Origin: Phyllobates terribilis
Taxonomy: Eukaryota
Length of the DNA: 64,000 bases
Direction: 5' to 3'
Assembly: GCF_046119375.1 (NCBI RefSeq)
Contig: NW_027362767.1
Span: forward strand, 137,516,001-137,580,000
A program made the position numbers and the translations under genes. Numbering within the stretch: position 1 is the first letter of the stretch; each line of letters starts with the position of its first letter. This document shows positions 7,015-62,613 of this stretch, piece by piece. A model generated the notes under the pieces. It saw nothing but the letters and a program-made list of their open reading frames with translations. It had not been told where the DNA came from and ran no database searches.

Positions 7015-7379
7015 TAGTTCTCTGTGAGAGTGTTCTACTCTCCTAATTGAAGCGCTTCCCTCCATAAAGATAAGAGCCATTTCTGCAACATCAGGTTGCG
7101 TGATTCTCTTTCATTATTACTTTTTAATACATGTAATTGTATATACCATATTGTTTTGTTCCCATTTTGTATCATCTTTGTATATATTTTTTTATAAATG
7201 CTGCCTACCTTTCTGGATTAAACATATAAAATGTAATAGGTCTGTTAATCTTGTTCTGTGAACCGCACCCCTGAAGCCATACGCTACCTTTAAGTGGTTC
7301 TTTTTGTTATTGTGGAATTGACAGTGACCATACCGGGGTATAAACAGTTTATTCCATGTATTGGAATCGGAGGTATATA

Positions 7380-9014
<1,635 letters not shown>

Positions 9015-10076: not shown

Positions 10077-13000
10077 TCAGCTGCGAGAAGTCAGGCTGTG
10101 TAATCGTGACGATCTTCGTGGCGACACACCCGTGACAGTACCCCCCCTTCTACGAGGGGCCTCCGGACCCTCAGGGCCAGGTTTATCCGGGTGAGTCGTG
10201 TGGAAGGCCCGAACTAATCGGTCTGCGTTAATATCCGACGCAGGAACCCACATCCTCTCCTCAGGACCATACCCCTTCCAATGAACCAGGTACTGAAGGG
10301 ATCGGCGATTAAAGCGTGAATCGATGACCCTCGATACCTGGAACTCCAAGTTACCATTGACCACCACTGGAGGGGGAGGTAAAGGTGACGGTACCACCGG
10401 CGCCACATACCTCTTAAGCAATGATCTGTGGAACACGTTGTGAATTTTAAACGTAGGGGGGAGGTCAAGACGGAATGCCACCGGATTAATTATAGAACTG
10501 ATTCTGTACGGCCCGATGAACCTGGGACCCAGTTTCCAGGAGGGAACCTTAAGTTTTATATTCCTGGTAGACAACCATACCCGATCGTTCACACTTAGGT
10601 CCGGACCAGACACTCTCCTCCTATCAGCCATACGTTTGTATCGGTTCCCCATAGTATTCAGATTCTTCAGCACCCCTCTCCATACTGAAGCGAGTGATGA
10701 GGAAAATCGTTCCTCCTCAGGAACCCCCGAAGAGCCCCCCCTACTGAAAGTACAAAACTGGGGGTGAAAACCATATGCCCCAAAAAAACGGGGACTTACC
10801 AGTGGACTCGCTCCGCCTATTATTAAGAGCAAACTCTGCCAGAGGTAAGAAAGAAGCCCAGTCCTCCTGGTTCTCTGACACAAAACACCGGAGATATGTC
10901 TCCAAGCTCTGGTTCATACGTTCCGTCTGACCATTGGTCTGAGGATGAAAAGCCGATGAGAACGATAAATGCATCCCCCGCCGTGTACAAAACGCCTTCC
11001 AGAATTTGGACACAAACTGAGACCCCCGATCTGACACCACCTCGGAGGGTACCCCGTGAAGCCTCACAATCTCCCCAATGAACACCTGCGCAAGAGTTTT
11101 AGCATTAGGAAGAGCAGGAAGAGCGATAAAATGTGCCATCTTGCTGAACCTGTCCACTACAACGAGTATGACCGTTTTACCCGAAGACGGAGGGAGGTCC
11201 GTAATAAAGTCCATAGACAGATGAGTCCAAGGACGCTCCGGGATCTTCAAAGGTAAGAGGGCCCCAGACGAACGGGTATGTGAGGTCTTAGAGCGCGCAC
11301 AAACCCCACAGGACGCGACAAAAGTTACCACCTCCTTATGTAAGTTAGGCCACCAAAACCGACGCGAGAGGAGATCCACAGTTGCTTTACTCCCCGGGTG
11401 TCCTGCAAAAACTGAGTTATGGTGTGCCTCGATCACCTTTTGTCGCAACTGATCTGGAACAAACAGTCTTCCCGGAGGTCCAACAGGGGCGTCCCCCTGA
11501 GCCTCCAATACCTCCTCCTCAAGCTCAGAGCATACTGCCGAAACCACCACCCCCTCCTGAAGGATAGGAATCGGGTCGTCCGTATTCCCGGCCCCAGGGA
11601 AACTACGAGATAAGGCATCCGCCTTTACATTTTTTGACCCAGGACGATATGTAACGACAAAATTAAACCTGGTAAAAAACAATGACCCCCTAGCTTGTCT
11701 GGGATTCAGACGTTTCGCGGACTTCAGATATAGCAGGTTCTTGTGATCGGTGATGACGGTGACCGGATGGACTGCCCCCACTAAAAAATGGCGCCACTCC
11801 TCAAAAGCTAACTTAATGGCCAAGAATTCCCTATTGCCGACATCGTAATTCCTCTCAGCGGACGACAATTTTTTAGAGAAAAAGGCGCACGGATGCCACT
11901 TACAAGGGGACGAACCTTGTGACAATACTGCTCCCACCCCTACCTCGGAAGCGTCTACCTCTACAATGAATGGCTGTGACGCATCAGGTTGAATGAGTAT
12001 GGGCGCCGAGGCAAAACATTTTTTCAAGGAGGAGAATGCTTGACAAGCCTTGTCAGACCACCTAGAAAAATCCGTCCCCTTTTTAGTCATGTCTGTGAGA
12101 GGCTTAACCATGGACGAGAAATTACGAATGAACTTCCGGTAATAATTCGCAAACCCCAGGAAACGTTGTAGTGCCTTAAGATTCTCTGGCCGATCCCACT
12201 CAAGAACTGCCCGCACTTTCCCAGGGTCCATACGAAAACCGGACGCTGAAACCAGGAAGCCAAAAAACTGGAGTTCCTGTACGGCGAACACACACTTTTC
12301 CCATTTGGCATACAGTTTATTATCCCGCAAGATCTGTAACACCTGCCTAACGTGCTCCTGATGAGACATCAGATCCGGCGAGTAAATTAAGATATCATCC
12401 AGATATATGACAACAAACTGTCCCACCAGGCGGCGAAAAATGTCATTAACAAAGTGTTGGAACACCGCCGGGGCATTAGTCAGACCGAATGGCATGACAA
12501 GGTTCTCATAATGCCCCTCCGGAGTGTTAAACGCCGTCTTCCACTCATCCCCCTCCTTCATCCTAATCAGATTGTACGCCCCCCTGAGATCCAATTTAGA
12601 GAACCATTTGGCGCCCACGATCTGATTAAAGAGATCGGGAATAAGTGGGAGTGGATACGGATCTCGGACCGTAATCCGATTAAGTTCACGGAAATCCAGG
12701 CAAGGGCGTAGGCCTCCATCTTTCTTCTTAACAAAGAAGAACCCCGCGGCCACCGGTGAAGATGAAGGTCTAATATGCCCCTTAGCCAGACTTTCTGAAA
12801 TATAATCCTTCATGGCCTGCCTCTCAGGACCAGAAAGGTTATACAACCTAGCTTTAGGTAACTTGGCCTCAGGGAGCAGTTTTACAGAACAGTCATACTC
12901 GCGATGAGGAGGTAGTTCCTGACACCCTTTCTCCGAGAATACATCCTCAAAGTCCGCCAGAAATGGAGGTAAGACCCTAGGAGTAACCGCACCGATGACC

Positions 13001-13417
13001 GTATTCATGCAGTTTTTATTACAGAATTTACTCCATTGGCTTATCTCTCTGGATTGCCAATTAATAACCGGGTTATGCTTAGTTAACCAAGGAAGGCCCA
13101 ACACTATAGGAGTGGGAAGACCCTCCAACACGTAGCAAGACAACAGTTCTTTATGTATCGCCCCCACTTGAAGTTTTACGTTATGCACAGCTTGCAAAAA
13201 ACTTCCCTGACCGAGAGGCCTGGCATCTCAATCGCATACCTTGAACCCGGGCAAACCGAGCGTCCACCAGATTAGCCCCGGCCCCACTATCCAGAAGAAC
13301 AGATATCCTCTCAGTTCTCGTACCCACCACCACCTCCGCCGGTACGAGAAACTGAGACGAACCTAGGGACGAAATACCTACTCCCAGATTGCCGTCCACC
13401 ACACAACCTGGGATCAA
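10077..13417 (-). pseudogene. Pol of Gypsy element 1 (PR-RT-RH-IN-chromodomain), frameshifted near 13200 and near 10780
   Basis: Three overlapping ORFs 13417-13181, 13197-10741, 10883-10077 carry consecutive pol domains in different frames. Confidence 0.92.
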
Positions 13418-14253
13418 CAGTTTTCCGACGACTCTTCACTCTGCAAGGGACGGGATGGACACCCCCCAATAAAATGTCCCTTTCTCCCGCAGAAGAAACA
13501 CCTTCCTGTCTTATGGCGCACCACCGGTCCCCTCCCCCGAAATGATGTCCCTCCTAATTGCATAGGCTCCTCTGGACTGACCAGGGGAACCACCATATGA
13601 GGGGACCTTGTAGGAGGTGGAGTCATCACAGGGGGTGGAGTTATCCCGCACCTCTCCCGAAGCCGTCTGTCAATGCGAATAGCAAGGGCCATAGCGGCTT
13701 CCAGTGACGCGGGAGAGTCATACTGTGCCAACACATCCTGTAATTTGTCGGATAAACCTTGACAAAACTGGCTCCTAAGAGCCGGGTCATTCCACTGGGT
13801 GTCAGTGGCCCACCTACGGAACTCCGAACAGAATTCCTCCGCCGGACGATCTCCCTGCTGGATCCTACGTAACTTAGATTCAGCAAGGGAGATCCGATCC
13901 GGGTCATCATATACAAGACCCAGAGCAGCAAAAAACCTATCCACTGACTGGAGAGCCGGGGAGCCCGGGGGAAGAGAGAACGCCCAAGATTGTGGGTCCC
14001 CTTGTAGGAGCGAGATGACAATTCCCACCCTTTGTTCTTCACTCCCCGATGACCGAGGCCGCAGCCGAAAGTACAACTTACATGCCTCCCGGAAAACAAA
14101 AAACTTGTCCCGCCCCCCAGTGAACCTGTCAGGGAGAGCTACTTTAGGTTCTGGTCCGGCTTGCTCCAGAGGATACAAAACCTTGGACCTAACGTCCGCC
14201 AGCTCCATGGACAAACTCTGCAACTGCCGAGCTAGAACGGCTACTGGATCCAT
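13414..14253 (-). CDS. Gag of Gypsy element 1 (279 aa, intact)
   Basis: ORF track; LPDRFTGGR capsid start, CFFCGRKGHFIGGC zinc knuckle. Confidence 0.93.
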   Translation of the reverse strand: MDPVAVLARQLQSLSMELADVRSKVLYPLEQAGPEPKVALPDRFTGGRDKFFVFREACKLYFRLRPRSSGSEEQRVGIVISLLQGDPQSWAFSLPPGSPALQSVDRFFAALGLVYDDPDRISLAESKLRRIQQGDRPAEEFCSEFRRWATDTQWNDPALRSQFCQGLSDKLQDVLAQYDSPASLEAAMALAIRIDRRLRERCGITPPPVMTPPPTRSPHMVVPLVSPEEPMQLGGTSFRGRGPVVRHKTGRCFFCGRKGHFIGGCPSRPLQSEESSENC

Positions 14254-14913
14254 GGTAGCTGGAGAAAATCTAAGTGGTCGGTGAAAATGTCACGCTGTCT
14301 CTGTGTACTGGAGGTAGGGGGCCTAAGCTGACCCTAAGCTGGGGCCCTGACTAATCCCTCTACCTGGAGGTACTGTTAAAGGTACAGAGGTCTAGGCCGC
14401 CAGCGTAACCCCTACCTCCTGAGGATCCCTGCACCTAAGTAATCTAGTCCTGAGAAGGACCCCTGATCACAACAAAAGGGGACAGGTAATAATATGCCCA
14501 CACTCAGTACTTAGACGAACGAGACAGTACAAGGGTAAAACCAAAACCACCTTGCATACAAAAACTACACAACTACAACAGAGGGAACACCAACGGGAAA
14601 GGAGATAAATGATAAAGCGAGGAAGGGAAAAAACACTCCAAATACACTTAGCTCTGAAACTCCAAATACCACGATCCGCTCTGTTAGTCTGCATGAAATG
14701 CTTTCATCGACACTTCCCTAACAGACCGGCAGGCATTTGAAGGAGTCCCACTACAGCAGCATTGATTGCAGCTGGGCGAGGCTGGACCTGTCTAGCACAG
14801 AGAGAGAGAGAGTTAACTCCCTCACTGCCGAAAAACACAAAGCACCAAAACCTCAGCTGCGAGAAGTCAGGCTGTGTAATCGTGACGATCTTTGTGGCGA
14901 CACACCCGTGACA

Positions 14914-16328: not shown

Positions 16329-19300
16329 TGTTGTGATCTGCAACAAGAACTAAGGAAAAAAGGGGAAAGCTTTCCCTACAGTAAGACTAAGCTGAATCCC
16401 TACGATGTAGCGGGCTGCCTGTTCCAAGCGAACAGACCCGCCTTAGTACTAGGCTAGTTTGAATGAAAACCTATAGAATAAAGGGGAGGGGGCCCTAAAA
16501 GAACTAAGGACTGGAACAAAAATGGGACACCTCCTGAACAGAGAAAGTTGTTGCAGAAAACAAAAGATAAACTGACAAAAAGGTACTAGAGGTCCCAAGG
16601 GACGAAGCGAACTGAGAGATAGGCACCAAAGCACCTGGCAAGCAAAACAGTCAAACAACACTGAAGTCCAGCACAGCCAAAAAGGTGGAGATGGAATATA
16701 AAGGCAGATGGTCACATGACCGCAAAACACAAGATGGATAAAACAAACAGGAGGGTTCTAACAGTACCTCCTCTTTTAAGCGGATCCTCCGGATCCTCCA
16801 GGCCCAGGCCTATCCGGAAACCTCTTGTGGAAAGCTTTAACAAGCCTAGGAGCAGAGACATCATCCGTCCTTACCCAGGAGTTGTCTTCGGGACCGAAAC
16901 CCTTCCAGAAGACAAGATACTGTAATCTTCCTCTATGCCATCTAGAATTCAAGATACGAGAAATTTCATATTCGCCGTCTTCCACCACAGGAGGAACTGT
17001 GACAGTGGCGTCCCTATCAGATACATCAGCCTTTTTCAACAAGGAAACATGACACATATAGGATTAATCTTCCAGGAAGTAGGGGCATCCAACCTAACAG
17101 CAGACGGGTTAATAACCTGAAGCACTTTAAATGGACCCACAAACTTAGGGCCCAGTTTTTTAGAGGGAATCCTCAACCGCAGGTTTCTTGAGGACAACCA
17201 AACCATGTCACCCACAGTAAACTAAACCTCCTTCCGTTTCCTGTCAATATACTTCTTGGACTTCTTGTTAGCCTCTTGAAGGTTGCAACGTACATTAGTC
17301 CAAACTCTCTCCAAATCACCGGAAAAATTCTCCTCCTCCGGCACCGCCGACCCTAATTTGGAGAACGAACCAAAAGACGGATGTCTCCCATTACAACAAA
17401 AAAATGGAGAACACCCAGCAGAGGAGGATGTATGATTGTTAAGAACAAATTCTGCGAGAGGCAGAAACTCAGACCACCCCTCTTGATTGCCTGCCACAAA
17501 ACAACGCAAAAACTGTTCAACATCCTGGTTCTTTCTTTCAGTCTGTCCATTAGACTCAGGATGATAACCAGACGAAAATGACAAATGGACTCCCAACCTG
17601 TCACAAAAAGCACGCCAAAAGCGAGCCACAAACTGAGGTCCTCTATCAGAAACAATATCCGTGGGAATGCCATGGAGCCTGACAATCTCCTTAACCCTCA
17701 ACTGGTGATGTGGGGTTTCTTATACCCCAGTGTTTAGAAATCGCTTATTTTTATAGAAAATGCAAAGATCATGTTTGTTTTAATCGTTTTTTTATTGGCG
17801 ATTGATTACACATGAGTATAACAAATTTTTGACACCCACAAATGGATGGAAGCTAGTGAGACACGTATCCTCATACCAGCATTTTTCAATGAATGGCAGC
17901 CGAACAAAAATTCCCTGGGGTGTAGCAAACCACACCTCACCAGTTGAGGGTTAACAAACGCCTTAGCAAGTGTTTTAGCGCAGGGCAACTTAATGAATGG
18001 AACCAAATGACACATCTTACTAAAGCGGTAGACGACCACACAGATGACAGTAAAACCCTCGGACACAGGAAGGTCAGTAATAAAATCCATTGTGAGATGT
18101 GTCCAAGGCGCACTAGGAACCTCCAGAGGGCAAAGCAACCCCGCAACAGGAGTATGTGAAGCCTTTGATCTAGCACACACAGTACACTGACGCACCCACT
18201 TAATGACTTCTTTCTGCCATCCAGGCCACCAAAAACTGCGACTGATAAGTCTCTTAGTCTCAGAAATTCCTGAATGACCTGCCAACCGAGACTCATGACA
18301 CTCCACAAATACCTGAAATTCAATCAAATTTTCCCGCAAAGTAGTACTTCCTGAAAGAAATACTCCTGCAGAGCGTAAACAAGCAATACGGACGTACCTG
18401 ACCTTTTTTTTTCTTTACTTAAACGAAGCTCACAATACTTAATCAAATGGTCAGCTTTATCACAATAAAGACACAATCCCTCGGCGAACCTCTGGTCTCT
18501 TTCCTGAGAGCAGAGCGACATCGCCCCAACCTCCATTGGTTCTCCGCCGTCTGAGCAGATTTTCTGGGGACTAGGACCTGGCATTACAGGAGTCTTTACC
18601 TCATTCTGCCTAGATCTCAGCCTCCTATCCACACGAACAGCTAATTGCATGGCATCCTGCAGCGTCTCAGGTGCAGGGAGTGCAATTAGCAAATCCTTAA
18701 CCCTTGCACTCAAACCAGCAAGAAATAGACATTTCAGAGCAGGATCATTCCATCTGACTTCAGAAGCCCACCTTCTAAAGTGTGAGCAATAAATCTCAGC
18801 ATCATCTGACCCCTGATTCAAATGCCTGAGTTCTGCCTCAGCAGATGAGATTCGATCAGGATCGTCATATAATAGACCCATAGCAGAAAAAACCTCTTCT
18901 ACCGACCTCAAACATGGATCATTAGGTTGAAGAGCAAAGGCCCACCCTTGTGGTTCATTGCGCAAAAGTGACATAATAAAACTAATGTGCTGTGATTCAT
19001 TCCCAGAGGACCTTGGTCTCAAACGAAAATATAACAAACAAGCATTTTTAAAGGAAAAAAAATCTTGCTGTTTACCATAAAAAACATCCGGCAGTCCTAC
19101 CTTGGGTTCCACAAAATGTGCTCCGGAACAGCTACTCACATGTTGCTGGAGCTCGGCCACCTCTAGAGTCAACCCCTGCAAGCGTTGAGCCAAATCCTGG
19201 ACGGAAGCCATACTGATCCCCGTATTAATATTTCCTTAATTTTGTTTTTTTTGGGGGGCTGGACTTTCTGTTATGATCTGCAACAAGAACTAAGGAAAGA

Positions 19301-20880: not shown

Positions 20881-21314
20881 GGGATATTACTGTAGCGGCT
20901 AATCAGGACGACATCAGGGCATTACTGCCCTTACTGTTGTATGGGGCCCGGTAAACAGCAGTACAGAGGGGGGGGGGCCTGGGCCGAGTCAGGGCCCCCT
21001 CTTGTGCTTGTGCTCACCGGGCCCCATGGTGTAACAAAGTGCTGAGCGCCACCTTCGGTGGCACACACCTCGGCGCTAAGTGCCACACACCTCACAGCTC
21101 CCTCATACTTCTGGTCAGGTGACAGAGCGTACCACCATCACCTGACCAGAAGTCTGGAGAAGTATCAAGGAGGTGGAGCTGCAAAGCTGCGGAAACCACC
21201 TAGCGCCGTTGTCAGGAAACCACAAGCCGAAGCGCCTGCAGGTGATCGTAAGTGAGGTAAGTATGATAAAACTTTTTTTCCATTTTCTTTCTAAAATTAA
21301 TTAAATAGGTGAGT

Positions 21315-22234: not shown

Positions 22235-24245
22235 TGTGGCGGTATCTAACCCCTGTGTGTGGTATTATTCGGTCATTATGAGGTGGTAATAAGGGGTCTG
22301 GTCAAGGTGTGATGATGTTTGTCCCTTGTACAGTCATGGCCAAAAGTTTTGAGAATTACACCAAAATTATATTTTCACATGATCTGCTGGCCTCTGGTTT
22401 TTATTAGTGTTTGTGTGATGTATATATCACATACAGAAATATAATTGCAATCATATTATGAGTACCAATAGGTTATATTGACAGTTAGAATGAGTTAATG
22501 CAGCAAGTCAATATTTGCAGTGTTGCCCCTTCTTCTTCAAGACCTCTGTAATTCTCCCTGGCATGCTCTCAATCAACTTTTGGACCAAATCCTGACTGAT
22601 AGCAGTCCATTCTTGCATAATCAATGCTTGCATTTTGCCAGAATTTGTTGGTTTTTGTTTGTCCACCCGTCTCTTGATGATTGACCACAAGTTCTCAATG
22701 GGATTAAGATCTGGGGAGTTTCCAGGCCATGGACCCAAAATCTCTATGTTTTGTTCCATGAGCCATTTAGTTATCACCTTTGCTTTATGGCAAGGTGCTC
22801 CATCATGCTGGAAAAGGCATTGTTGGGCGCCAAACTGCTCTTGGACGGTTGGGAGAAGTTGCTCTTGGAGGACATTCTGGTACCATTCTTTATTCATGGC
22901 TGTGTTTTTAGGCAAGACTGTGAGTGAGCCGATTCCCTTGGCTGAGAAGCAACCCCACACATGAATGGTTTCAGGATGCTTTACAGTTGGCATGAGACAA
23001 GACTGGTCGTAGCGCTCACCTCTTCTTCTCCGAATAAGCAGTTTTCCAGATGTCCCAAACAATCGAAAAGGAGATTCATCAGAGAAAATGACTTTGCCCC
23101 AGTCCTCAGCAGTCCACTCCCTGTACCTTTTGCAGAATATCAGTCAGTCCCTGATGTTTTTTCTGGAGAGAAGTGGCTTCTTTGCTGCCCTCCTTGAAAC
23201 CAGCCCTTGCTCAAAGAGTCTCTGCCTCACAGTGCGTGCAGAACTCACACCAGCCTGCTGCCATTCCTGAGCAAGCTCGGCACTGCTGGTAGTCCCATCC
23301 CGCAGCTGAAACAGTTTTAAGATACGGTCCTGGCGCTTGCTGGTCTTTCTTGGGCGCCCTGGAGCCTTTTTGACAACAATGGAAGCTCTCTCCTTGAAGT
23401 TCTTGATGATGCGATAGATTGTTGACTGAGGTGCAATCTTTGTAGCTGCGATACTCTTCCCTGTTAGGCCATTTTTGTGCAGTGCTATGATGGCTGCACG
23501 TGTTTCTTTAGAGATAACCATGGTTAACTGAAGAGAAACAATGATACCAAGAACCAGCCTCCTTTTAAAGTATCCAGTGATGTCATTCTTACTTAATCAT
23601 GACTGATTGATCGCCAGCCCTGTCCTCATCAACACACCTGTGTTAATGGATCAATCACTAAAACGATGTTAGCTGCTCCTTTTAAGGCAGGACTGCAATG
23701 ATGTTGAAATGTGTTTTGGGGGTTAAAGTTCATTTTCTGGGCAAATATTGACTTTGCAAGTACAGTAATTGCTGTTAAGCTGATCACTCTTTGACATTCA
23801 GGAGTATATGCAAATTGCCATTACAAAAAATGAAGCAGTAAACTATTTGTCTCATTCTCAATACTTTTGGCCATGACTGTAAGTGGTATTATTCGGTCAC
23901 TATGAGGTGATATTTGGTCCGGTCATGATGTAAAAGTATTTGTCCCTTGTATGTGGTATTATTCTGTCACTATGTAGTCCGGTCATGGTGTGGCGGTATT
24001 TGTCTCTTGTATGTGGCATTATTCGGTCACTATGTGGTGGTAATAGGGGGTCTGGTCATGGTGTGGCGGTATTTATCTCTTGTATGTGGTATTATTCGGT
24101 CACTATGTGGTGGTAATAGGTGGTCTGGTCATGGTGTGGCGGTATTTGTCCCTTGTATGTGGTATTATTCAGTCACTATGTGGTAGTAATATGTGATCTG
24201 GTCAAGATGTAACGGTATTTATCCCTTGTATGTGATATTATTGAT
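22235..24245. repeat. ~70-73 bp tandem repeat (GGTCTGGTCATGGTGTGGCGGTATTTGTCCCTTGTATGTGGTATTATTCGGTCACTATG...) split by a Tc1 insertion
   Basis: Copies at 22235-22330 and 23880-24245 flank the transposon. Confidence 0.8.
22331..23879 (-). mobile_element. Tc1/mariner transposon with short TIRs, DD35E spacing, one nonsense codon
   Basis: TA|CAGTCATGGCCAAAAGTTTTGAGAAT...ATTCTCAATACTTTTGGCCATGACTG|TA; ORF 23521-22508 in a single frame with one TGA at 23146-23144; motifs [18 protein letters not shown]. Confidence 0.96.
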
Positions 24246-25575: not shown

Positions 25576-26679
25576 CATGTCCATTGATTACGAGAGATGA
25601 ACGAACGACCTGTCTGAGAAAATTCTTTCAAAGACAGTCTTCCACAGACAATATCAGTCAGTGGTCGGTCGGCTAAAACGGTTGGTCGGTCAGCTTTATT
25701 TTTAGGTTTTATAAAGAAGACGACTGATGACTGGGGAGAGGACGGACGTTCTCTTACTTCCCTTTTGAGACACCGGCTTGTAGGAGGATCTCATCTCTTT
25801 GTTCCTTAAACCAGAACAGTTATGAAGAGCTTTGATTAAATTCCCACTCCTTTGGCTACGGCTGGTGAGGTGCAGAAGGGGCCACCTGCCTGGCAGAGTG
25901 CTGAATTTACAACAAATCAGATCTTGGGAAATCTGCTGATCCTACACATGCTTAATGTAGACAGAAGCCAATAGATAATAAAAAAAATCTGCATTTGCAA
26001 AGTGTGAAGGGAACGCTCATGCGCAAGTAACACTGGCCTTAAGAGCAGCCCTTTTTGGTACACCCTCCTGACTAGTAACCTTACAACCCCTAGTAAATGG
26101 TTGATTGAGGCTTTGTGCCACTGTAAGATGTGTGGGTAGGCAAAAAAAAGGCACAACCCCCAGTATGCCACCAATCATCCTGTATTGAAGACTGGATTTT
26201 CATAATCATCCTGTCTTAATTTTGATACTAAATGGGTCAATTTTGTGTGCTGCCGTAGGACGATCCTAAAAGTCCATGTACCCGGCCAATACATATGGCC
26301 AGGGGTTATGCCCCTGTATACTCAGTCTGAGCTCAGATCCCACACTTTCCTTCTCCCCTACTCCACTTTTAGTTCTTGTCTGCTCCATCTGCGGCCGAGG
26401 CTGTCAAGATTGCAAAATCTTTGTTTATGTGGAACTATTTTTGTGATTTTTCTTTGGGGGATGGAGAGGTTGGACGTTGCACAAACTGTAGCCGCTTTGC
26501 AATGTGTTTCCTGCAGTTCCAGAGTGATCAGCGATCTACACCTTACACCGCACATTGCGAAATTTCCATTGCTCATCATCATCACCCACCAACGTGGACT
26601 GGATGATTTAATTTCTTGGACTGTGTAGAGGCAGAAGACACGCTCTACTTCTTCAAGAGTCTTGTTGAGCTCAGCTACA

Positions 26680-27744
26680 ATGTCACTCGGGGACGAGGGA
26701 CAGATGGAGAACCCTCTGGAGACTACCACTTACATAACCATCACTTATGATGAAGAACTTGTGATCTTGTGCCAAAAACAGGACAGCCACAATTTTGGGG
26801 CTTTGGTGGTGCCTGCCTTCTTCTATGTGGTCTTCATAGTCAGTCTTGTAGGCAACGGCCTCATCTTATACCTTCTACTGAAGTACGAGAACATTAAGAC
26901 GGTGACCAACTTCTTCATTCTCAACCTGGTGTTCTCCGACTTGTTGTTCACCCTCCCACTACCCTTCTGGGGTTACTACCACCGCCACCAGTGGATATTC
27001 GGGAGGACGTCTTGCAAGATGTTGGCCTCCATGTTCTACATTGGGTTTTACAGCTCCATCTTGTTCTTGACCATGATGACAGTGGATCGATACATGGCGG
27101 TTGTTCATGCCATCTATGCCACCAGGACCAGGAAGATGCTGTATGTCTATGTGGTCACTGGCTTGGTTTGGGTCATCAGCTTTTTCTCGGCCATCCCCAA
27201 GTTCATTCTGTATGGGACCAGAGAGAACGTGCTTAACAAAATGTTGGTGTGCGAGGAGACGGGCTTCATCATAGATAAGATCAATAAATGGAAGCTGGTG
27301 GGATTCTATCAGCAGGTCGTCATGTTCTTCCTGGTGCCGCTTTTCATCATCTTGTACTGTTACACACTGATCCTCATCAAGCTGAACTCTACGAAGATGC
27401 ACAACAAGAACAGGGCCATCAAGCTGATCTTCCTTATCCTTCTGGCCTTCTTCATCTGCTGGACCCCCTATAACATCATCATTTTCATCAGGGTCAGGCA
27501 GATCTCCGGGAATATTGGGGAAGATGACTGCAGTGAAACCATTGACTACGCCTTTTTCATTTGCCGGAACATCGCCTACTTCCATTGCTGCATTAACCCT
27601 TTCTTCTACACATTTGTGGGAACCAAGTTCCGTAAACACCTGTCCCAGATGATGGGGAGGTGGGTCATGTGCGGGACCAGGTACCGGCAGTCCAGCCTCA
27701 GCAGCAGGACGAGCGAATACTCCCCGCAGACCATCTACGAGTGA
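26680..27744 (+). CDS. XCR1-like chemokine receptor (class A GPCR, intronless CDS, ~346-354 aa)
   Basis: 7 TM with GN, LxxxD, DRY, CWTPYN, HCCINPFFY; XCR1-like diagnostics LKYE and ICRNIAYFHCC...FVGTKFRKHL. Start either ATG 26680 or ATG 26704; AATAAA at 27969-27974. Confidence 0.9.
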   Translation: MSLGDEGQMENPLETTTYITITYDEELVILCQKQDSHNFGALVVPAFFYVVFIVSLVGNGLILYLLLKYENIKTVTNFFILNLVFSDLLFTLPLPFWGYYHRHQWIFGRTSCKMLASMFYIGFYSSILFLTMMTVDRYMAVVHAIYATRTRKMLYVYVVTGLVWVISFFSAIPKFILYGTRENVLNKMLVCEETGFIIDKINKWKLVGFYQQVVMFFLVPLFIILYCYTLILIKLNSTKMHNKNRAIKLIFLILLAFFICWTPYNIIIFIRVRQISGNIGEDDCSETIDYAFFICRNIAYFHCCINPFFYTFVGTKFRKHLSQMMGRWVMCGTRYRQSSLSSRTSEYSPQTIYE

Positions 27745-31218: not shown

Positions 31219-33229
<2,011 letters not shown>

Positions 33230-37514: not shown

Positions 37515-40500
37515 TCACAGGGAAGCAATGCCTGCCGCAGACAGGATTGTGAGCGCCAGTACGATGTAGCCAGTCTGGTACACCTCAGGGATCTTAAAGC
37601 CTTTGCCGAGGTCCCAGGCCTGCGGAAAAGAGGAGATGGTCACTGATCAGCTCTACTCCAGTTACATCCAAAGCTGCATTGTCATTGCCGCCCTCTGCTC
37701 TAGCGATGTTACTCTCCCAAGATGAGTAGATGCAGCTTTGGCTGTGACTAGAGCACGAAGCATCTAGGCCAATACCCGCACTCACCAGGTGGCGAATGCC
37801 GTTCAACGTGTGATACATGACGGGGAAAGCGATGGCGAACTTGGCAGAGTAGATGAGCGCTGGGCCGAGGCTCAGAGACTTGATGAGGTCCAGGTATGAG
37901 GCGTAATCTCCGGGGAGGACCAAGGCGGCCAGGCCGAACAGCGACACACCTGAGAATGAGAGGCCGATCATACAAGGCGGAGGGGCTTGTGGTGACCCCC
38001 TCTGTGCACATGGTGTAATACAGAACAAATATGGCCACCACCCAGTCTCTGGCACTCACCAGCGCTCAGGGCAATGCCCGTTCCTCTGTGCGTGATGGAC
38101 ATCATCATGGGCAAAGACCATCTGTGAGGAGAAAACAGCCGGCGGTCAGTAACCAGGAGACTCACGTCCTCAGCGCCAGTCACATCCAGAGCTGCACTCA
38201 CAATTCTGCAGATTTCATCTCACTGCTGGCCCCCTGCAGTACAGTGTATATTACGGGGGATTTAGTCACATACTGTGCTGCACTTATTAATTACTGCCTT
38301 CCTGTCAGCCCTCAGGATCAGGGAGCACCGTACACACTACATCTCCCACTGTGCAATGCATCATGGGAGCTCCCATGTCCCAGGAAATTGCTCTTCATGC
38401 AGTTGTCGGACAGTGGACAGAACATGCATTATATACACGGCTGGGATTCGGGTGGGCTTTTAGTATACTCCGCTTTATTTTGGGGTCACGATGGGGAAAA
38501 CACAAAATCTAGATCCAAAATTAGCCAAAGCTGTAGATATAAAGGGCGAGCGATGCCAGCGGCGGTGGGTGGGGGGCAGCGATGGCACATTCTCCGGTGG
38601 GGATGGTGTCAGGAATGCTGTGAGGGGGAGCCGCCGCCATCCTCACCCCTCGTCTCACATAGCAGGGTCATTCATAGGGCCGGTATGTGAGGCGGGGGAG
38701 GAACAATGCAGCCGCCGGCCCGGCACTTGCTGAAGGGACAACTTTCCCTGGCACAGGGCATGGTGATGCCCACCTAGTGCCACTGAGGAATGTCTGCTGC
38801 TGGGTCCTGGAGGAGCGGGCCGTGCAGGCGACCATATTGGATATTTCTAGTATCTTACTTATAGATAGAGATGTGGGGCGACAAGGGGCGGCTCAACCGG
38901 GTGTTCTTGTCCCAGAAGCGATCCATCTCCTGCTTGGCCGATGTCCCCATGGGAACAGCGCTGAAAAGAACGAGGACGACGTTAGCAGCGACAATGAAGA
39001 TCACACACCAGGAGTGGAGGACCCCTCTAAATCAGCATCTTGGGGTTCTGTCACAGGACGGCGATCGTCCATAGCGGGGGCACTTACTTTCGGAGGCACA
39101 GGCCCGGGCGCAGCGGGGAGCTCAGGCATCGCCACGCGCTGTGTCTGATGGGGGAAGCAGAATTCCAGGTCACACAAGAAACAAAGCGGCTTAGGGGCAT
39201 GAGGAAGGTGTCCACACCATAGTACAGACCAAAAGTTTGGACACACCTCATTTCAAGATTTTTCTGAATTTTCACGACTATGAAAATTGTACATTCACAC
39301 TGAAGGCATCAAAACTATGAATTAACACATGTGGAATTATATACTTAACAAAAAAAGTGTGAAACAACTGAAAATATGTCTTATATTCTAGGTTCTTCAT
39401 AGTAGCCACCTTTTGCTTTGATGACTGCTTTGCACACTCTTGGCATTCTCTTGATGAGCTTCAAGAGGTAGTCACCGGAAATGGTCTCCCAACAATCTTG
39501 AAGGAGTTCCCAGAGATGCTTAGCACTTGTTGGCCCTTTTGCCTTCACTCTGCGGTCCAGCTCACCCCAAACCATCTCGATTGGGTTCAGGTCTGGTGAC
39601 TGTGGAGGCCAGGTCATCTGGCGTAGCATCCCATCACTCTCCTACTTGGTCATATAGCCCTTACACAGCCTGGAGGTGTGTTTGGGGTCATTGTCCTGTT
39701 GAAAAAATAAATGATGGTCCAACTAAACGCAAACAGGATGGAATAGCATGCTGCTGCAAGATGCTGTGGTAGCCATGCTGGTTCAGTATGCCTTCAATTT
39801 TGAATAAATCCCCAACAGTGTCACCAGCAAAGCCCCCCCACACCATCACACCTCCTCCTCCATGCTTCACGGTGGGAACCAGGCATGTAGAGTCCATCCG
39901 TTCACCTTTTCTGCGTCGCACAAAGACACGGTGGTTGGAACCAAAGATCTCAAATTTGGACTCATCAGACCAAAGCACAGATTTCCACTGGTCTAATGTC
40001 CATTCCTTGTGTTCTTTAGCCCAAACAAGTCTCTTCTGCTTGTTGCCTGTCCTTAGCAATGGTTTCCTAGCAGCTATTTTACCATGAAGGCCTGCTGCAC
40101 AAAGTCTCCTCTTAACAGTTGTTGTAGAGATGTCTGCTGCTAGAACTCTGTCTGGCATTGACCTGGTCTCTAATCTGAGCTGCTGTTAACCTGCGATTTC
40201 TGAGGCTGGTGACTCGGATAAACTTATCCTCAGAAGCAGAGGTGACTCTTGGTCTTCCTTTCCTGGGGCGGTCCTCATGTGAGCCAGTTTCTTTGTAGCG
40301 CTTGATGGTTTTTGCAACTGCACTTGGGGACACTTTCCAAGTTTACCCAATTTTTTCAGACTGACTGACCTTCATTTCTTAAAGTAATGATGGCCACTCG
40401 TTTTTCTTTACTTAGCTGCTTTTTTCTTGCCATAATACAAATTCTAACAGTCTATTCAGTAGGACTATCAGCTGTGTATCCACCTGACTTCTGCTCAACA

Positions 40501-41210: not shown

Positions 41211-41394
41211 CTTCACCCAGTGACGTTACCGCCCCGGACACGCGCGCATTAGTGTCGTCAGCCGTGTTGTCATTGGCCGAATCCAGAGGAAGGCGTGGTT
41301 ATAGACTGGGGGGCGGATCTACGGGAGAAGGGAGTCATGTGACTGTAAGTCTGTAACCATGGCAACCACTGGCACCAAACGGAATGTCAGCAGA

Positions 41395-44110
41395 ACAGTA
41401 TCACACATGATGGATTAGATACACCAGGACAGTATCACACATGATGGATTAGATATACCAGGGCAGTATCACACATGGTGGATTAGATATACCAGGGCAG
41501 TATCATACATGGTGGATTAGATATACCAGGACAGTATCACACATGGTGGATTAGATATACCAGGACAGTATCACACATGATGGATTAGATATACCAGGGC
41601 AGTATCACACATGGTGGATTAGATACACCAGGGCAGTATCACACATGGTGGATTAGATACACCAGGGCAGTATCACACATGGTGGATTAGATACACCAGG
41701 ACAGTATCACACATGATGGATTAGATACACCAGGGCAGTATCACACATGGTGGATTAGATACACCAGGACAGTATCACACATGATGGATTAGATACACCA
41801 GGACAGTATCACACATGATGGATTAGATACACCAGGACAGTATCACACATGATGGATTAGGTACACCAGGGCAGTATCACACATGGTGGATTAGATATAC
41901 CAGGACAGTATCACACATGATGGATTAGATATACCAGGACAGTATCACACATGATGGATTAGATACACCAGGACAGTATCACACATGATGGATTAGATAC
42001 ACCAGGGCAGTATCATACATGGTGGATTAGATATACCAGGACAGTATCACACATGATGGATTAGATACACCAGGGCAGTATCATACATGGTGGATTAGAT
42101 ACACCAGGACAGTATCACACATGATGGATTAGATACACCAGGACAGTATCACACATGATGGATTAGATACACCAGGGCAGTATCATACATGGTGGATTAG
42201 ATATACCAGGACAGTATCACACATGATGGATTAGATACACCAGGGCAGTATCATACATGGTGGATTAGATACACCAGGACAGTATCACACATGGTGGATT
42301 AGATACACCAGGGCAGTATCACACATGATGGATTAGGTACACCAGGGCAGTATCACACATGGTGGATTAGATATACCAGGACAGTATCACACATGATGGA
42401 TTAGATACACCAGGACAGTATCACACATGATGGATTAGATACACCAGGACAGTATCACACATGATGGATTAGATATACCAGGGCAGTATCATACATGGTG
42501 GATTAGATACACCAGGACAGTATCACACATGATGGATTAGATACACCAGGGCAGTATCATACATGGTGGATTAGATACACCAGGACAGTATCACACATGA
42601 TGGATTAGATACACCAGGACAGTATCACACATGATGGATTAGATACACCAGGGCAGTATCACACATGGTGGATTAGATATACCAGGGCAGTATCACACAT
42701 GGTGGATTAGATATACCAGGACAGTATCACACATGATGGATTAGATACACCAGGGCAGTATCACACATGGTGGATTAGATACACCAGGACAGTATCACAC
42801 ATGATGGATTAGATACACCAGGACAGTATCACACATGATGGATTAGATATACCAGGACAGTATCACACATGATGGATTAGATACACCAGGACAGTATCAC
42901 ACATGGTGGATTAGATATACCAGGACAGTATCACACATGATGGATTAGATACACCAGGGCAGTATCACACATGGTGGATTAGATACACCAGGGCAGTATC
43001 ACACATGATGGATTAGATACACCAGGACAGTATCACACATGATGGATTAGATATACCAGGGCAGTATCACACATGGTGGATTAGATATACCAGGACAGTA
43101 TCACACATGATGGATTAGATACACCAGGGCAGTATCACACATGGTGGATTAGATACACCAGGGCAGTATCACACATGATGGATTAGATATACCAGGACAG
43201 TATCACACATGATGGATTAGATATACCAGGACAGTATCACACATGATGGATTAGATACACCAGGACAGTATCACACATGATGGATTAGATACACCAGGAC
43301 AGTATCACACATGATGGATTAGATATACCAGGACAGTATCACACATGATGGATTAGATACACCAGGACAGTATCACACATGATGGATTAGATACACCAGG
43401 GCAGTATCACACATGGTGGATTAGATATACCAGGGCAGTATCACACATGGTGGATTAGATATACCAGGACAGTATCACACATGATGGATTAGATACACCA
43501 GGGCAGTATCACACATGGTGGATTAGATACACCAGGACAGTATCACACATGATGGATTAGATACACCAGGACAGTATCACACATGATGGATTAGATACAC
43601 CAGGACAGTATCACACATGATGGATTAGATATACCAGGACAGTATCACACATGATGGATTAGATACACCAGGGCAGTATCACACATGGTGGATTAGATAC
43701 ACCAGGGCAGTATCACACATGATGGATTAGATACACCAGGACAGTATCACACATGATGGATTAGATACACCAGGACAGTATCACACATGATGGATTAGAT
43801 ACACCAGGACAGTATCACACATGATGGATTAGATACACCAGAGCAGTATCACACATGGTGGATTAGATATACCAGGACAGTATCACACATGATGGATTAG
43901 ATACACCAGGGCAGTATCACACATGGTGGATTAGATACACCAGGGCAGTATCACACATGATGGATTAGATACACCAGGGCAGTATCACACATGGTGGATT
44001 AGATACACCAGGGCAGTATCACACAAGATGGATTAGATACACCAGGTTAGTATCACACATGATGGATTAGATACACCAGGGCAGTATCACATGATGGATT
44101 AGATACACAT
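41395..44110. repeat. 34-bp minisatellite (GGACAGTATCACACATGATGGATTAGATACACCA), about 80 copies
   Basis: Very homogeneous tandem array between SDHC and MPZ starts. Confidence 0.98.
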
Positions 44111-44365: not shown

Positions 44366-46876
44366 ATGGAATCGCTGACCTCCTCCTGCTGCCTGCTGGG
44401 CCTTGTAGTGCTCTCCGCTCTGAGTAAGTCCTCGCTTCTAGTCACATAACTAAAAGTGTTCTGGCGTCTGCAGTGATACATATCCATAGTGGGACTGTTG
44501 AACGCGGCGGCCGCCATGTTTGGACAGATACAATCGTCCGCGGTCACAGCGGCGTATTTATGGGGAGATGTTTTGTGTCCTTTATATTGTATCCGGGAGG
44601 TGTATATTATATTATATAGGTGTATAGAAAGCTAGTGATGTCTGGAAACCATCAGCAGGTAGGCGACTGCTCCTGACAGATTCTCACATGGTTTTGTATT
44701 GTACGTATTGTCTGGGTCATTATCAAATCTGCACATTGGGGGGTTTGTGAGGTTCTGGGGGTACAGCGAATGGGATTGGTGCAGTTCCCACCACTAAGAC
44801 CATCCACAGTAGGACAGAGCAGCTTGCCTGCTTGCTGAGGGTCTCCTTTTGGTCTAGTAATGCCTGTGTACGCAGTCACTTTAAGACTTGGGGAAAGTAC
44901 AAAGAATATTTACAAATAGAATTCTGTTCTTTGTTTTGTTGATTGTTTACAAAAATATGAAAATTTGTAGCAAATTTGTGTTTTTTTCTCGGAAACTAAA
45001 TTGTGATTAAAAAAAGTTAATATTTTACGTCAGATCGAAGCTTGTGGAAATTTAGCCCTGTGTTTGCTTTCCCTGAAGGCTGCTCCCCCCGCCGAGTCTA
45101 TGATACCTGTGTGACATTGTCTTTGCCCCGCAGCGCTCCCCCCGGCCCTGGCCATTGAGGTTTACACAGCCCGCGAGATACACGGCACGGTCGGCTCGCA
45201 GGTCCACCTGTCCTGCACTTTCTGGTCCAGTGAATGGATCTCAGACGACATCTCCGTCACCTGGCACTACCAGCCTGACAACAGCAGAAGCACGTACTCG
45301 GTAAGACTGGCTGATAACAGGGAACAGCAGCCTGTATTCAGCGTCAGAGTGCTGTCCCTTTAAATCCAACATGGAGACCTGGTCTTTGTCTCCGGCAGAT
45401 ATTTCACTACTCCAAGGGACAGGCGCACATAGACGACACAGGCATCTTCAAGGATCGTATCGAGTGGGTGGGCTACCCCCGGAGCAAGGACGGCTCCATC
45501 GTGGTCCACAACCTGGAATATGGCGACAACGGGACCTTCACCTGCGACGTGAAGAACCCGCCGGACGTGGTGGGGAAGTCGTCCTTTGTGCACCTGCTGG
45601 TCTATGACAAAGGTGAGGAGCCGGCCCTAGCCCCGAGGTGCGGGCACAGGTGGGCTCACACGGCACTAACACTACCATCCTCCCCCAGGCCCCGTCCGCG
45701 CTGGCATGGTGCTCGGCATCATTATCGGAGCCGCCCTGGGGCTGGTGATCATCGTGGCGCTCCTGGCATACCTCATACGTTACTGCTGGCTGCGGAGGCA
45801 GATCCGGGTGCAGCGCCAGCTCAGGTGGGTGCGGGTGGGCACCAGGGGCACTGAGTGAGGGCCAGGTGGGCACCAGGGGGCGCTGTCACCTCTCTATCCA
45901 TCTCCCCTCACTGACGACTGCCATCTTCTCTTTACAGCGCCCTAGAAAGAGGAAAACTTCACAAATTAACCAGAGGCTCAAAAGGCGGCAGACAGGTGAG
46001 CGGGGGGCCAGCGGTGCCCCAGTGTCAGGCGTGATGCCCCGTATACTCCAGTCTCATCCAAAGCTGCAAGTCCTGTATGCTAGATGCATCTATCTATATG
46101 TTGTGTCTCATACTCCGGTCACACCTAGAGCTGCACTATATCTAATACACCAGTCACACCCAAAGCTGCACTATATCTAATACTCAAGTCACACCCAGAG
46201 CTGCAACACATCCATATACATATCATATGCAATATTCCAGTCACATCCAGAGCGGCATTATATCTATCACTCCAATCACACCCAGAGCTGCCTTATATCT
46301 AATACTCCAGTCAAACTCAGAGCTGTACTATATATGACTCCAGTCACATCCATAGCTGCATTACTATCTTATACTCCAGTCACATCCATAGCTGCATTAT
46401 TATCTTATACTCCAGTCACATCCAGAGCTGCATTATATCTAATACTCCAGTCACGTCCAGAGCTGCAGAATGACCTATACTCCAGTCACACCCAGAGCTG
46501 CACTATATGTAATATTCCAGTGACATCCAGAGCAGCAGCATGTCCTATACTTCAGTCACACCCAGAGCTGTATTATATCTAATTCTCCAGTCACATTTAG
46601 AGCTGCATTTTGTCTTATACTCCAGCTTGTAGTGTGATGTAGTGTATTACAGACATTGAACCAGCAGGTGGCAGTAGAGAGCTGTGAGACCTGCACACTG
46701 AGGCCTAATAGCTGATATGTGAGTGCAGCTTTGGATGTGACTGGAGTACAATGCACTATTTAACCCTTTTTTCCTTGATTTTCCAGACGCCGCTTCTCTC
46801 CATGCTCGACCAAACCAGGAGCTTCAAATCCAGCGACAAGAAACCTAAAGGGCTGGGCGACTCCCGCAAGAAATAG
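44366..46876 (+). CDS. MPZ: Myelin protein zero (240 aa, 6 exons)
   Basis: Exons 44366-44423, 45134-45300, 45399-45612, 45689-45824, 45938-45995, 46787-46876; Ig-V FWSSEWISDDIS...DNGTFTCDVKNPPD, TM, RYCWLRR; TAG at 46874-46876. Confidence 0.98.
46020..46630. repeat. Degenerate CTCCAGTCAC..CCAGAGCTGCA repeats in MPZ intron 5
   Basis: About 12 diverged copies; similar motifs at ~37660-37750 and ~38170-38200. Confidence 0.75.
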
Positions 46877-47080
46877 CAATTAGCAGGCAGGGAAGGTACA
46901 CATAAGGCAGATACGGAGTCCCCCCGCAGCTCCAAGGTGATCTATACCATCGAGATGGAGCTGCGGGGGGACGAGGACGGGGACCAGCCCCGCCGAGCCG
47001 CGGTAAAGTCTCCCAGTAAGAACAGCCTCAAAAACGCCCTCAAGAATTTAATCAAAAGTGACTCAGAGAAACACCCTTAA
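46877..47080 (+). CDS. MPZ: In-frame readthrough extension of MPZ (L-MPZ, 67 aa)
   Basis: QLAGREG...KVIYTIEMELRGDEDGDQPRRAAVKSPSKNSLKNALKNLIKSDSEKHP* resembles the mammalian L-MPZ tail (IEMELR, AVKSPS, SLKNALKN). Confidence 0.88.
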   Translation, partial: QLAGREGTHKADTESPRSSKVIYTIEMELRGDEDGDQPRRAAVKSPSKNSLKNALKNLIKSDSEKHP

Positions 47081-48139
47081 TCTAGCGGAGGCCGGTGGGG
47101 ACCTGGGCGAGAAGGTGTACCCCGGGGTCACACCCCCAATCCTTCTCCCGGGTCCCCGCCGGTCTCCTGCCGCGGCTAATGCCTTATAATAACCTGTATG
47201 TGTGATCCGTATCGTACCTTTCCCTGCGGGAAACTAGCAAGAGCTTTCTGAGAAACCAAGAATCAAAGTAGGACTCCTCCAGACCAGCGGGGGCGCCGTC
47301 TATCACCCTAGGGGTGGCTGCAATGCGATGCAATGCAATCTCTACCCAACCAGGGCACCCTGGAGGATGGGCCAGCCATAATAATCATGGTAATCACCCA
47401 GATCTGGGATTTTTGGCTCCTCGTGGGAGGGGCCTGAGATCTCCGCCAATCAAGTATCACTTTATGATGATGTCTGATCTGACCGCGATCTCCAGCCACC
47501 TGCTGTGCCCTTTTGGCTCGTGTACAAGTATCGCCCTCTCTGCCTCTCTCCAGGGCGATATTTCTACAGCTTTAACCCCTTCGTGGCCAACCAGGGGTTG
47601 TTAAAGCTTTAATGGCTTCTGTTAACCCCTAAGATGCTGCACAGACCAACTGCAGTGTCAACTGGGGTTCAATAGAAGGTGTTAATAACCGGTACCATAA
47701 ATCCCAGAATATAGGCCCTGATGTGTCTAAAGTGATAATAGGGTGATAACACCATACGCACTAAATTAAATACCGTAAGTCTCCAAATGTAAGAGCAGCA
47801 TCACTTCTCAACCCCCAGAAAGCGCCAATACTTACCGTATATATTAGAATAGAAAGCCCAGCATGAGACTCTAATTCCAAGACTTTAGTCTAGGCCAGGA
47901 TACCTAGCTCTAACTTTATATCCCATAAATCCTAGAATATAAAGCCTTCCCAATACCGTGAATGACAGAATAAATCGCCAGAATCACTCTGAGAGCCTCC
48001 GATTGGGTGCTCATATCTAGCCACACCCTGTTAATGTAAATAATAGAATATAGGGGCAGTATGGTTCATCACACTCCAATGAATACCTGTTACCATAAGT
48101 ACTAAAATATAGAACCACTACGCTTTATACCCGACAGTG

Positions 48140-60447: not shown

Positions 60448-61662
60448 TGTAGCATCGGCGTCTCTGTCCCGTTCTAGGCAGAGACGCCGTCCCTCTCACC
60501 TCCCCGCTCCTGGCGCGGCGTCCTCCAGCGCTTCTCTCCCCGCTGCTTCCGGCACGCGCTCCTTCCCCGGCAGTGTGCTTAGGGCGCGCGCGCGCTCCCC
60601 CTCTCTTAAAGGGACCGCGCGCGCCGTCCTAAGGAGTCCCCGGCCAATTGCCGGAGGACCTCCCATATAAAAGGCACCTCCTCCAAAATGGAGGTGCCCG
60701 AGCAATGTTGTAGCACTGTTCACTACTCTGCTTCAGCCCTCAGGTCCCGTTGCCAGTTACCTGCCAGATACCTGCCAGATTCCTGCCAGTCTGCTGTCTA
60801 ATTCCTGCCTGATATCCTGCTACCTGCCTGCTAGCCTGAGGTCCGACGGTCTGCCCTCCAACTTCTGTCAGTCTGTCTAAGGACCAGCTTGCCCGCTCAC
60901 CTGGGAGCGCACATCTTCTACCTGCCTGCTTGCCTGAGGTCCGACGGTCTGCCTTCCAACTCCTGTCAGTCTGTCTAAGGACCAGCTTGCCCGCTCACCT
61001 GGGAGCGCACATCTTCTACCTGCCTGCTTGCCTGAGGTCCAACGGTCTGCCTTCCAACTCCTGTCAGTCTGTCTAAGGACCAGCTTGCCCGCTCACCTGG
61101 GAGCGCTCATCTGCTGCCTGTCTGCTAGCCTACCAGGAGGCTCTGCCGTCACGTGCTGTGACCACCCGCCTGTCCAGAGACTCCTGCCCGCTCACCTGGG
61201 AGCGCTCATCTGCTACCTGTCTGTTGGTCTTCCTGGAGGCTCCGCCGTCACATGCTGTGACCACCCGTTTATCCAGAGACTCTCGCCTGCTCACCTGGGA
61301 GCTCACGTCTATCATCTGCCGCCACAGGTCGTACCAATCCTTTACCCAGAGACTGCCCCGGTCACTTGCCGTGACCTCCTGCCCGTTCATCCAGAGACTG
61401 CCCCGGTCACTTGCCGTGACCTCCTGCCCGTTCATCCAGAGACTGCCCCGGTCACTTGCCGTGACCTCCTGCCCGTTCATCCAGAGACTGCCCCGGTCAC
61501 TTGCCGTGACCTCCTGTCCGTTCATTCAGAGACTGTCCCAGTCACCTGCTGTGACTGCCTGCCCGTCTACCCTGGTCGCCACCCGCTCCCTTACAAGGAC
61601 CGCCCCCTTGTATAGTAGCTCAGAGGTTCCGCCTCCCAGACCCGTTACAGTTTGCTCGGGCC

Positions 61663-62613
61663 ATGGAACCCGGTGGCACCCAAGCTCCCTCGCTCTCGGA
61701 CCTGTGTCATGAACTGTCCCGTCAGAGGTCCCAACAGGAGTCCATCCTGGGTCACCTGCGGAATGTCAATTCTCGCCTGGACACTCTGACTGCTCTGCCT
61801 GCAACCACCGCCAGTGCCATGACTCGCAATCCGGCAGCTCCACTGCCCACTAATAACATGGTATCCTACCCCGGACCCCGGCTTTCTGCACCTCCTCGTT
61901 TCGGAGGCGACTCCGCCCAGGCTCGGGGCTTCATAAATCAGTGCACCCTGCACTTTGAACTCCTGTCTCACCAGTTTAACTCCGACCGGGCCAAAATTGC
62001 CTTCATCATGTCCCATCTCACCGGGGAGGCCCTGGCCTGGCTAAATCCTCTATGGGAGAGAGGAGACCCCCTGGTGTCCGACTTGCCTGCCTTTCTCACG
62101 GCTTTCCGGAAAGTCTTCGACGAACCCGGACGGAAGACCTCATCCGCATCATCTCTGCTACACCTCCGTCAGGGAAGTCTCACCGTGGGCCAATATGCCA
62201 TACGGTTCCGTACCCTTGCCTCGGAGCTGGCCTGGGATAATGACGCTCTGGTTTCCGTCTTCTGGGAGGGTCTGTCCGGCCGTATTAAAGATGAACTTGC
62301 CGGTCGGGACATTCCTACCACTCTCGATGACCTTATAACTCTTGCCACCCGGATTGACCTGCGGTTCCAGGAGCGTGCCAAAGAGGTCACCCGTGAGAGG
62401 AGGGTTCCACGTCTAGCTCCTACTTTCCAGAAACCCGTCACTCCCTCCGTCTCTCCTCAGCTACACTCTCCTGAGCCTATGCAGGTCGACCAGACCAAGA
62501 TGGTCGGTTCTCGCCAAGAATCTCGCCGAGCCGAGGGAAGCTGTTTCTATTGTGGCAGTATGAAGCACTTCATCCGTTCCTGCCCGGAAAAACCGGGAAA
62601 CGCCAGTGTCTAG
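61663..62613 (+). CDS. Gag of Gypsy element 3 (316 aa, intact)
   Basis: PPRFGGDS capsid start, [14 protein letters not shown] knuckle. Confidence 0.94.

Follow-up and report, generated by a model that had tools for sequence, protein, structure and literature searches.

The myelin protein zero gene (MPZ) of Phyllobates terribilis, its chief gene for nerve myelin, raises the question whether translation always ends at its first stop codon, or whether some ribosomes proceed into the tail behind it, and what in the messenger RNA might set the proportion of the two products. The DNA analysed, termed the window throughout, is a stretch of 64,000 nucleotides (assembly GCF_046119375.1, contig NW_027362767.1, positions 137,516,001 to 137,580,000, forward strand). 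In this window the gene model comprises six exons with GT-AG junctions, which yield a P0 protein of 240 amino acids:

44366..44423, + strand: MPZ coding exon 1, start codon and signal peptide (gene model, GT donor)
45134..45300, + strand: MPZ exon 2, first half of the Ig V domain (gene model)
45399..45612, + strand: MPZ exon 3, second half of the Ig V domain (gene model; Pfam V-set, E=3.9e-10)
45689..45824, + strand: MPZ exon 4, transmembrane helix (gene model; alignment to protein models P0002-P0004)
45938..45995, + strand: MPZ exon 5, cytoplasmic tail (gene model; 3' end coincides with a contig loose end in runs X5, X10 and X14)
46787..46873, + strand: MPZ exon 6, the last 29 P0 codons, ending AAG AAA (Pfam Myelin-PO_C; splice junction in contigs)

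The identity of the gene is evident from the joint presence of an Ig V domain, a transmembrane helix and a Myelin-PO_C tail, exon 6 reaching 31.8 bits against the latter family (cut-off 25). The top protein matches are named myelin P0 of frog and mammal in the databases, and the MPZ stretch has a single match in its own genome. The P0 tail at 46787-46810 reads PLLSML in the frog and PVLYAML in mammals, and the mammalian tyrosine is absent in 3/3 frogs. Conversely, at 46937-46951 (VIYTI) the extension of the frog contains a tyrosine missing from the mammals.

Elsewhere in the window lie what we take to be look-alikes of protoporphyrinogen oxidase (655-1375, - strand), an XCR1-like chemokine receptor (26629-27741, +), eIF3f (31348-33016, -) and SDHC exons (37597-38055, -); SDHC adjoins MPZ in human. 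Frames resembling Ty3/gypsy LTR retrotransposons were recognized by eye at 10080-14289 (-), where one long frame (13227-10744) is pol-like, at 17225-19235 (-) and at 61555-62610 (+), as were Tc1/mariner-like transposase fragments at 5675-8281 (+), 22511-23596 (-) and 39691-40185 (-). The window also holds a 19-bp perfect inverted repeat with a 4-nt loop (4038-4079) and another of 16 bp (21107-21153), a long, short-period tandem array upstream of MPZ (about 41390-44110), an array with a 35-bp unit in intron 5 (46106-46625) and one with a 71-bp unit behind the 3' UTR (48126 onward).

The features that bear on the question follow directly on the last P0 codon:

46874..46882, + strand: first stop and its context TAG CAA TTA, the TMV type I nonamer (TAG at 46874-46876; no listed difference in runs X1 or X5)
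46877..47077, + strand: L-MPZ extension of 67 codons (7.4 kDa), ending in the amphipathic segment SLKNALKNLIK (open frame, protein comparison)
47078..47080, + strand: second stop TAA (sequence, gene model)

By the definition in passages of PMC13517186, UAG CAA UUA constitutes the type I (TMV) readthrough context. The original prediction had pointed to a UAG-CAR-YYA signal made up of the TAG at 46874 and the following CAATTA, to 67 open codons containing IEMELR, AVKSPS and SLKNALKN, and to a readthrough isoform of 308 amino acids. The signal is found in the sequence at 46874-46882, the open codons carry these motifs, which are common to the mammalian models, and the six-exon gene model gives the same length (240+1+67 = 308, computed). 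An open run of at least 67 codons is unremarkable alone, with a chance probability of 6-8% under dinucleotide nulls. After a given stop, CARYYA is expected by chance with P = 0.2-0.3% and the exact CAATTA with P of about 1.6e-4, and TAGCAATTA occurs once in the window when both strands are searched. The P0 C-terminus, SRKK (46862-46873), is two residues shorter than the SRKDRK of Gastrophryne and Aquarana, so that an AAA codon directly precedes the stop and, with AAG AAA upstream, positions -2 and -1 are adenines.

The tail has clear relatives. Compared with the NCBI P0 model of Gastrophryne, 62/67 residues are identical (93%), as against 47/63 in the P0 cytoplasmic tail and 129/151 in the ectodomain plus transmembrane helix of the same pair, so the tail is the more conserved part at borderline significance (p=0.05). 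In five full-length mammalian models, 34-36 of the 67 residues are the same (51-54%), fragments in Ranitomeya, Naja and Lerista retain the C-terminal motifs, and AVKSPS and SLKNAL persist in both mammals and squamates across frame-preserving indels. These tail-bearing NCBI and UniRef models are predictions, which document the conservation of the sequence rather than independently prove its translation. The extension matched no Pfam family and no PDB entry, and a metagenome scan for related loci returned 242 pattern matches, 0 of them confirmed, and hence no DNA from distant orthologs. P0017 was discarded as a repetitive chance match. The coding appearance of the L-MPZ tail leads the automated models P0009, P0010, P0012 and P0013 to place splice junctions into it, and thereby puts spurious P0 isoforms in public databases.

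At its very start the tail differs between lineages: it begins Q-L in both frog sequences (2/2) and R-L in the 6/6 mammalian models that cover the position. P0011-P0015, in which the position is missing, were excluded from this count, as was P0010, which served for the inference on the leucine codon only. The putative mammalian stop context TAG-CGG-TTA, named in the original prediction, is compatible with the R-L start at the level of the protein. The splice acceptors of two automated models suggest in addition that the Fukomys stop ends in AG and that the hamster leucine codon ends in A, which would fit a CGN-YYA-type context; the literature texts and supplements searched held nothing usable on the mammalian context as DNA. 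The original prediction suggested CAA-TTA as the possible ancestral signal; since frogs have Q-L and mammals R-L, while the two squamate fragments lack the first-codon position and no outgroup was found, either start may be the ancestral one.

Are stop and tail parts of one messenger RNA? Contigs from four runs (X1, X5, X10 and X14, of 18 runs listed) were placed on 46640-48100. In 4/4 runs a contig begins at the exon 6 boundary and spans the TAG and the whole tail, and in X5, X10 and X14 the loose end listed is the end of exon 5. Exon 6 starts and exon 5 loose ends together indicate spliced transcripts, and these junctions support the RNA nature of the runs, which is a tool's guess, none being recorded as RNA. 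The stop and the extension thus lie on one spliced mRNA in all four runs.

The same contigs bear on two ways of reaching the tail without reading through the stop. In one, the AG of the TAG would serve as splice acceptor and join exon 5 to the tail, with loss of the last 29 P0 residues; such a junction would be in frame, and the automated Fukomys model P0009 has exactly this one. We nevertheless hold it to be highly unlikely, since only 37% of the 19 bases before that AG are pyrimidines, and 4/4 runs use the acceptor at 46787 and cross the TAG, with no loose end at 46876 among those listed. Moreover, published passages put mouse L-MPZ at about 36 kDa compared with 30 kDa for P0, and report that a TAG-to-GCG change turns all P0 into L-MPZ. 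In the other, A-to-I editing would convert UAG to UIG (Trp) in some transcripts, for which long predicted double-stranded stems nearby could provide a substrate. These stems leave the stop out, however, and no difference is listed at 46875 in X1 (0 other letters, contig 8) or in X5, though contigs drop rare variants; we regard the chance of editing as next to negligible. The preferred reading remains translational readthrough of an unaltered stop.

The tail also bears the marks of selection in contigs of related organisms. The differences listed individually are 40 of 129 rows, all from X5 and reaching up to 47717. In X5 none is listed from 46847 to 47085 (17/18 differences of that contig piece being listed), and the tail has 0/204 bases listed as differing, compared with 16/246 just past the second stop (Fisher p=1e-4, or p=7e-4 in the worst case that the unlisted difference falls in the tail). 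X10 differs at 6/320 positions in 46784-47103 and at 86/949 further on (p=2.6e-6). The 9 indels listed are without exception located 3' of 47080, as is a 49-nt skip. The contrast in substitutions and indels, rather than a dN/dS ratio, shows that the tail is under purifying selection.

The tail of X5 is also devoid of synonymous change, where about 3-3.7 changes would be expected at UTR rates (P(0) 0.03-0.06), and RNA structure may be the source of part of the constraint on its nucleotides. A candidate structure lies within the tail:

46918..46972, + strand: predicted hairpin H1, a perfect 17-bp stem pairing 46918-46934 with 46956-46972 (folding, shuffles, recoding)

H1, which was found post hoc, has a z of -5.3, and 0/200 shuffles fold as well; with the peptide held fixed, 0, 0 and 1 of 5000 synonymous recodings do so under three codon usages. 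The window contains 7 perfect inverted repeats that have at least 11 bp and a loop of no more than 60 nt, and only one of them is longer than H1. Its stem is unchanged in X5, and the Gastrophryne peptide permits 17/17 pairs, as its one replacement in an arm (R to C) allows a U-G pair, considered at the protein level only. Eight mammalian peptides permit 11-13 of the 17 pairs, and the perfect stem is, by these sequences, one that mammalian proteins cannot encode. When the spliced mRNA was scanned in 97 windows, the first 40 included none below z -2, and all 8/97 with z<=-3 were 3' of the first stop, where they coincide with H1, a second hairpin H2 (47087-47167) and the region 47490-47700. Rfam returned only sub-threshold matches for H1 and H2 (the best was mir-H1, 34 bits against a gathering threshold of 97), and no MPZ hairpin in print was found in the literature listings searched, outside of which lay Yamaguchi 2012 and Yamaguchi and Baba 2018 with their supplements.

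With such structures confined to the region behind the stop, H1 lying in the tail, and synonymous change missing as well, one might suppose that the tail is untranslated in this frog and conserved as an RNA structure or binding site of the 3' UTR. This we deem very unlikely: constraint stops at the second stop codon, motifs outside H1 (AVKSPS, SLKNAL) are the ones retained across frame-preserving indels, and passages of PMC7070019, citing another paper, report the longer protein in frog peripheral nerve.

Does H1, then, trigger the readthrough? Its 5' end follows the TAG after a 41-nt spacer, at +45. Known stimulatory stems start at +2 to +13, and the stem behind UAG CAA in Drosophila dfr loses its activity when shifted 3-9 nt further (passages of PMC13170385 and PMC13517186). 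H1 starts beyond the limit of about 13 nt for stems stimulating at the entry channel and is therefore too far away for a known readthrough-stimulating stem, and the folds computed contain no strong stem nearer to the stop. H1 is thus likely not the trigger.

It may even have no function at all. That H1 is a mutational by-product, an inverted repeat perfected by template switching and kept through constraint on the peptide, has in our judgement a chance not far short of even. The window has other perfect inverted repeats of similar length (16 and 19 bp), the 5' arm falls within that section of the tail which mammals share least, and the position falls outside the known stimulatory spacing. Neither H1 nor H2 showed a compensatory change on both sides of the stem, X5 having no change in H1 and the rows of X10 and X14 there being unlisted. 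The rarity of equally stable recodings, the unchanged stem in X5 and the Gastrophryne replacement that preserves all 17 possible pairs point the other way, and H1 probably exists as an RNA stem superimposed on the tail of the frog. As such, it could conceivably act in a Neobatrachian dosage control absent in mammals, where a ribosome that has read through pauses at H1, the next one is held on the stop and the P0/L-MPZ ratio is tuned, an improbable scheme in our estimate. Given the 11-12 nt of mRNA in the entry channel (PMC13517186, in part), the A site of a ribosome stopped by H1 is computed to lie near 46904, about 30 nt past the TAG. This distance is about the spacing of collided ribosomes, i.e., one ribosome length. 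If functional, H1 would be an RNA structure laid over a vertebrate readthrough tail.

Further structures are predicted beyond the second stop, the closest being:

47087..47167, + strand: predicted hairpin H2 in the 3' UTR, long and GC-rich, 6 nt past the second stop (z -5.3; conservation mixed)

H2 is spaced from the TAA as is typical of stimulatory stems, and 32 further codons are open past the TAA. The region is variable among the related organisms (at least 14 changes in X5, indels in X14), and because it varies so freely, readthrough of the second stop looks unlikely. Covariation in H2 was not apparent in the changes listed: the 14 of X5 lead to 3 mismatches, and placing the changes at random gives equally good folding in 207/2000 cases; the lists for X10 and X14 are partial. 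The distal hairpins at 47490-47700 have z values of -3 to -4.3; in one stem (47632-47658) three one-sided compatible changes are common to three organisms, and adjoining stems take mismatches. A long-range helix (46996-47005/47168-47177) was rejected, since a change common to three organisms breaks it.

In the mechanism we favour, a minority of ribosomes likely reads through UAG-CAA-UUA to give the 308-aa L-MPZ, as reported for other tetrapods. The AAA-UAG-CAA-UUA context would weaken termination by eRF1, a near-cognate tRNA would insert a residue at the UAG, and translation would then end at the TAA. At a read-through UAG, the residue inserted is usually Gln, Tyr or Lys. Through the 7.4-kDa tail, a fraction of P0 would likely gain a PKC site together with an amphipathic end that binds membranes.

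How strong might the effect be? Passages of PMC13517186 state that in mammals the type I motif is active with no structure downstream, and according to PMC3159437, likewise in part, yeast readthrough is favoured by adenines at -1 and -2, and the TMV context swapped into a UGA alphavirus cassette gave 10.1% compared with 7.6%. Where mammalian translation was reconstituted and release factors were left out, the TMV context gave only 2.36-fold over a standard UAG context, and release factors suppressed readthrough (PMC9272376, in part); the gains in these mammalian data are modest. Published passages put mouse L-MPZ at 5-10% of P0 and describe its phosphorylation by PKC; by the protein models, the mouse reaches this level with an extension starting R-L, not Q-L. 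An excess of L-MPZ is reported to disrupt myelin, and a raised L-MPZ/P0 ratio causes neuropathy in mice (passages of PMC7070019). Higher readthrough in the frog, which the original prediction expected to be efficient, is plausible. Frog Q-L and mammalian R-L make the locus a clean natural contrast in which to see how the L-MPZ/P0 ratio is set. Yamaguchi and Baba are said to have noted in 2018 a resemblance to UAG motifs of viruses and yeast as well. No frog-specific context was found in passages of PMC7465998, PMC10020422, PMC6298568, PMC9841425 and PMC5100048, nor in the supplement of PMC4359377.

Three known systems invite comparison. With the TMV type I context of tobamo-, beny- and pomoviruses, frog MPZ shares the exact nonamer UAG CAA UUA and the adenines at -2/-1, yet it is a cellular vertebrate gene whose upstream codon is AAA where that of TMV is CAA. 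Like the structure-stimulated systems (Drosophila dfr/vvl with UAG CAA UCA and a stem, the alphavirus stems and the MuLV pseudoknot), it combines a UAG and CAR-YYA with a stable stem in the extension, but their stems start at +2 to +13 and H1 at +45. The closest counterpart is L-MPZ itself (Yamaguchi et al. 2012; Yamaguchi and Baba 2018; Otani et al. 2020, PMC7070019), which arises from the same gene and the same UAG and has a homologous tail with EMEL, AVKSPS and SLKNALK. Passages of PMC7070019 report that stop context and tail show conservation across species ranging from frogs to humans, and that the protein is present in the nerves of these species, and PMC4973966 likewise describes, in part, the conservation from frog to human. 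The programmed readthrough into a conserved L-MPZ that the original prediction proposed is thereby supported, by context, homologous tail and constraint, and was already in print for frogs; as an NCBI frog model also has the tail, the readthrough itself is little news. The feature is very probably this frog's L-MPZ and of the same kind as the published one, although the frog tail has 67 residues and the mammalian models 63, starts with Q-L instead of R-L, follows a P0 tail without the tyrosine of the mammalian VLYAML, and carries a perfect 17-bp stem where mammalian peptides allow at most 11-13 pairs.
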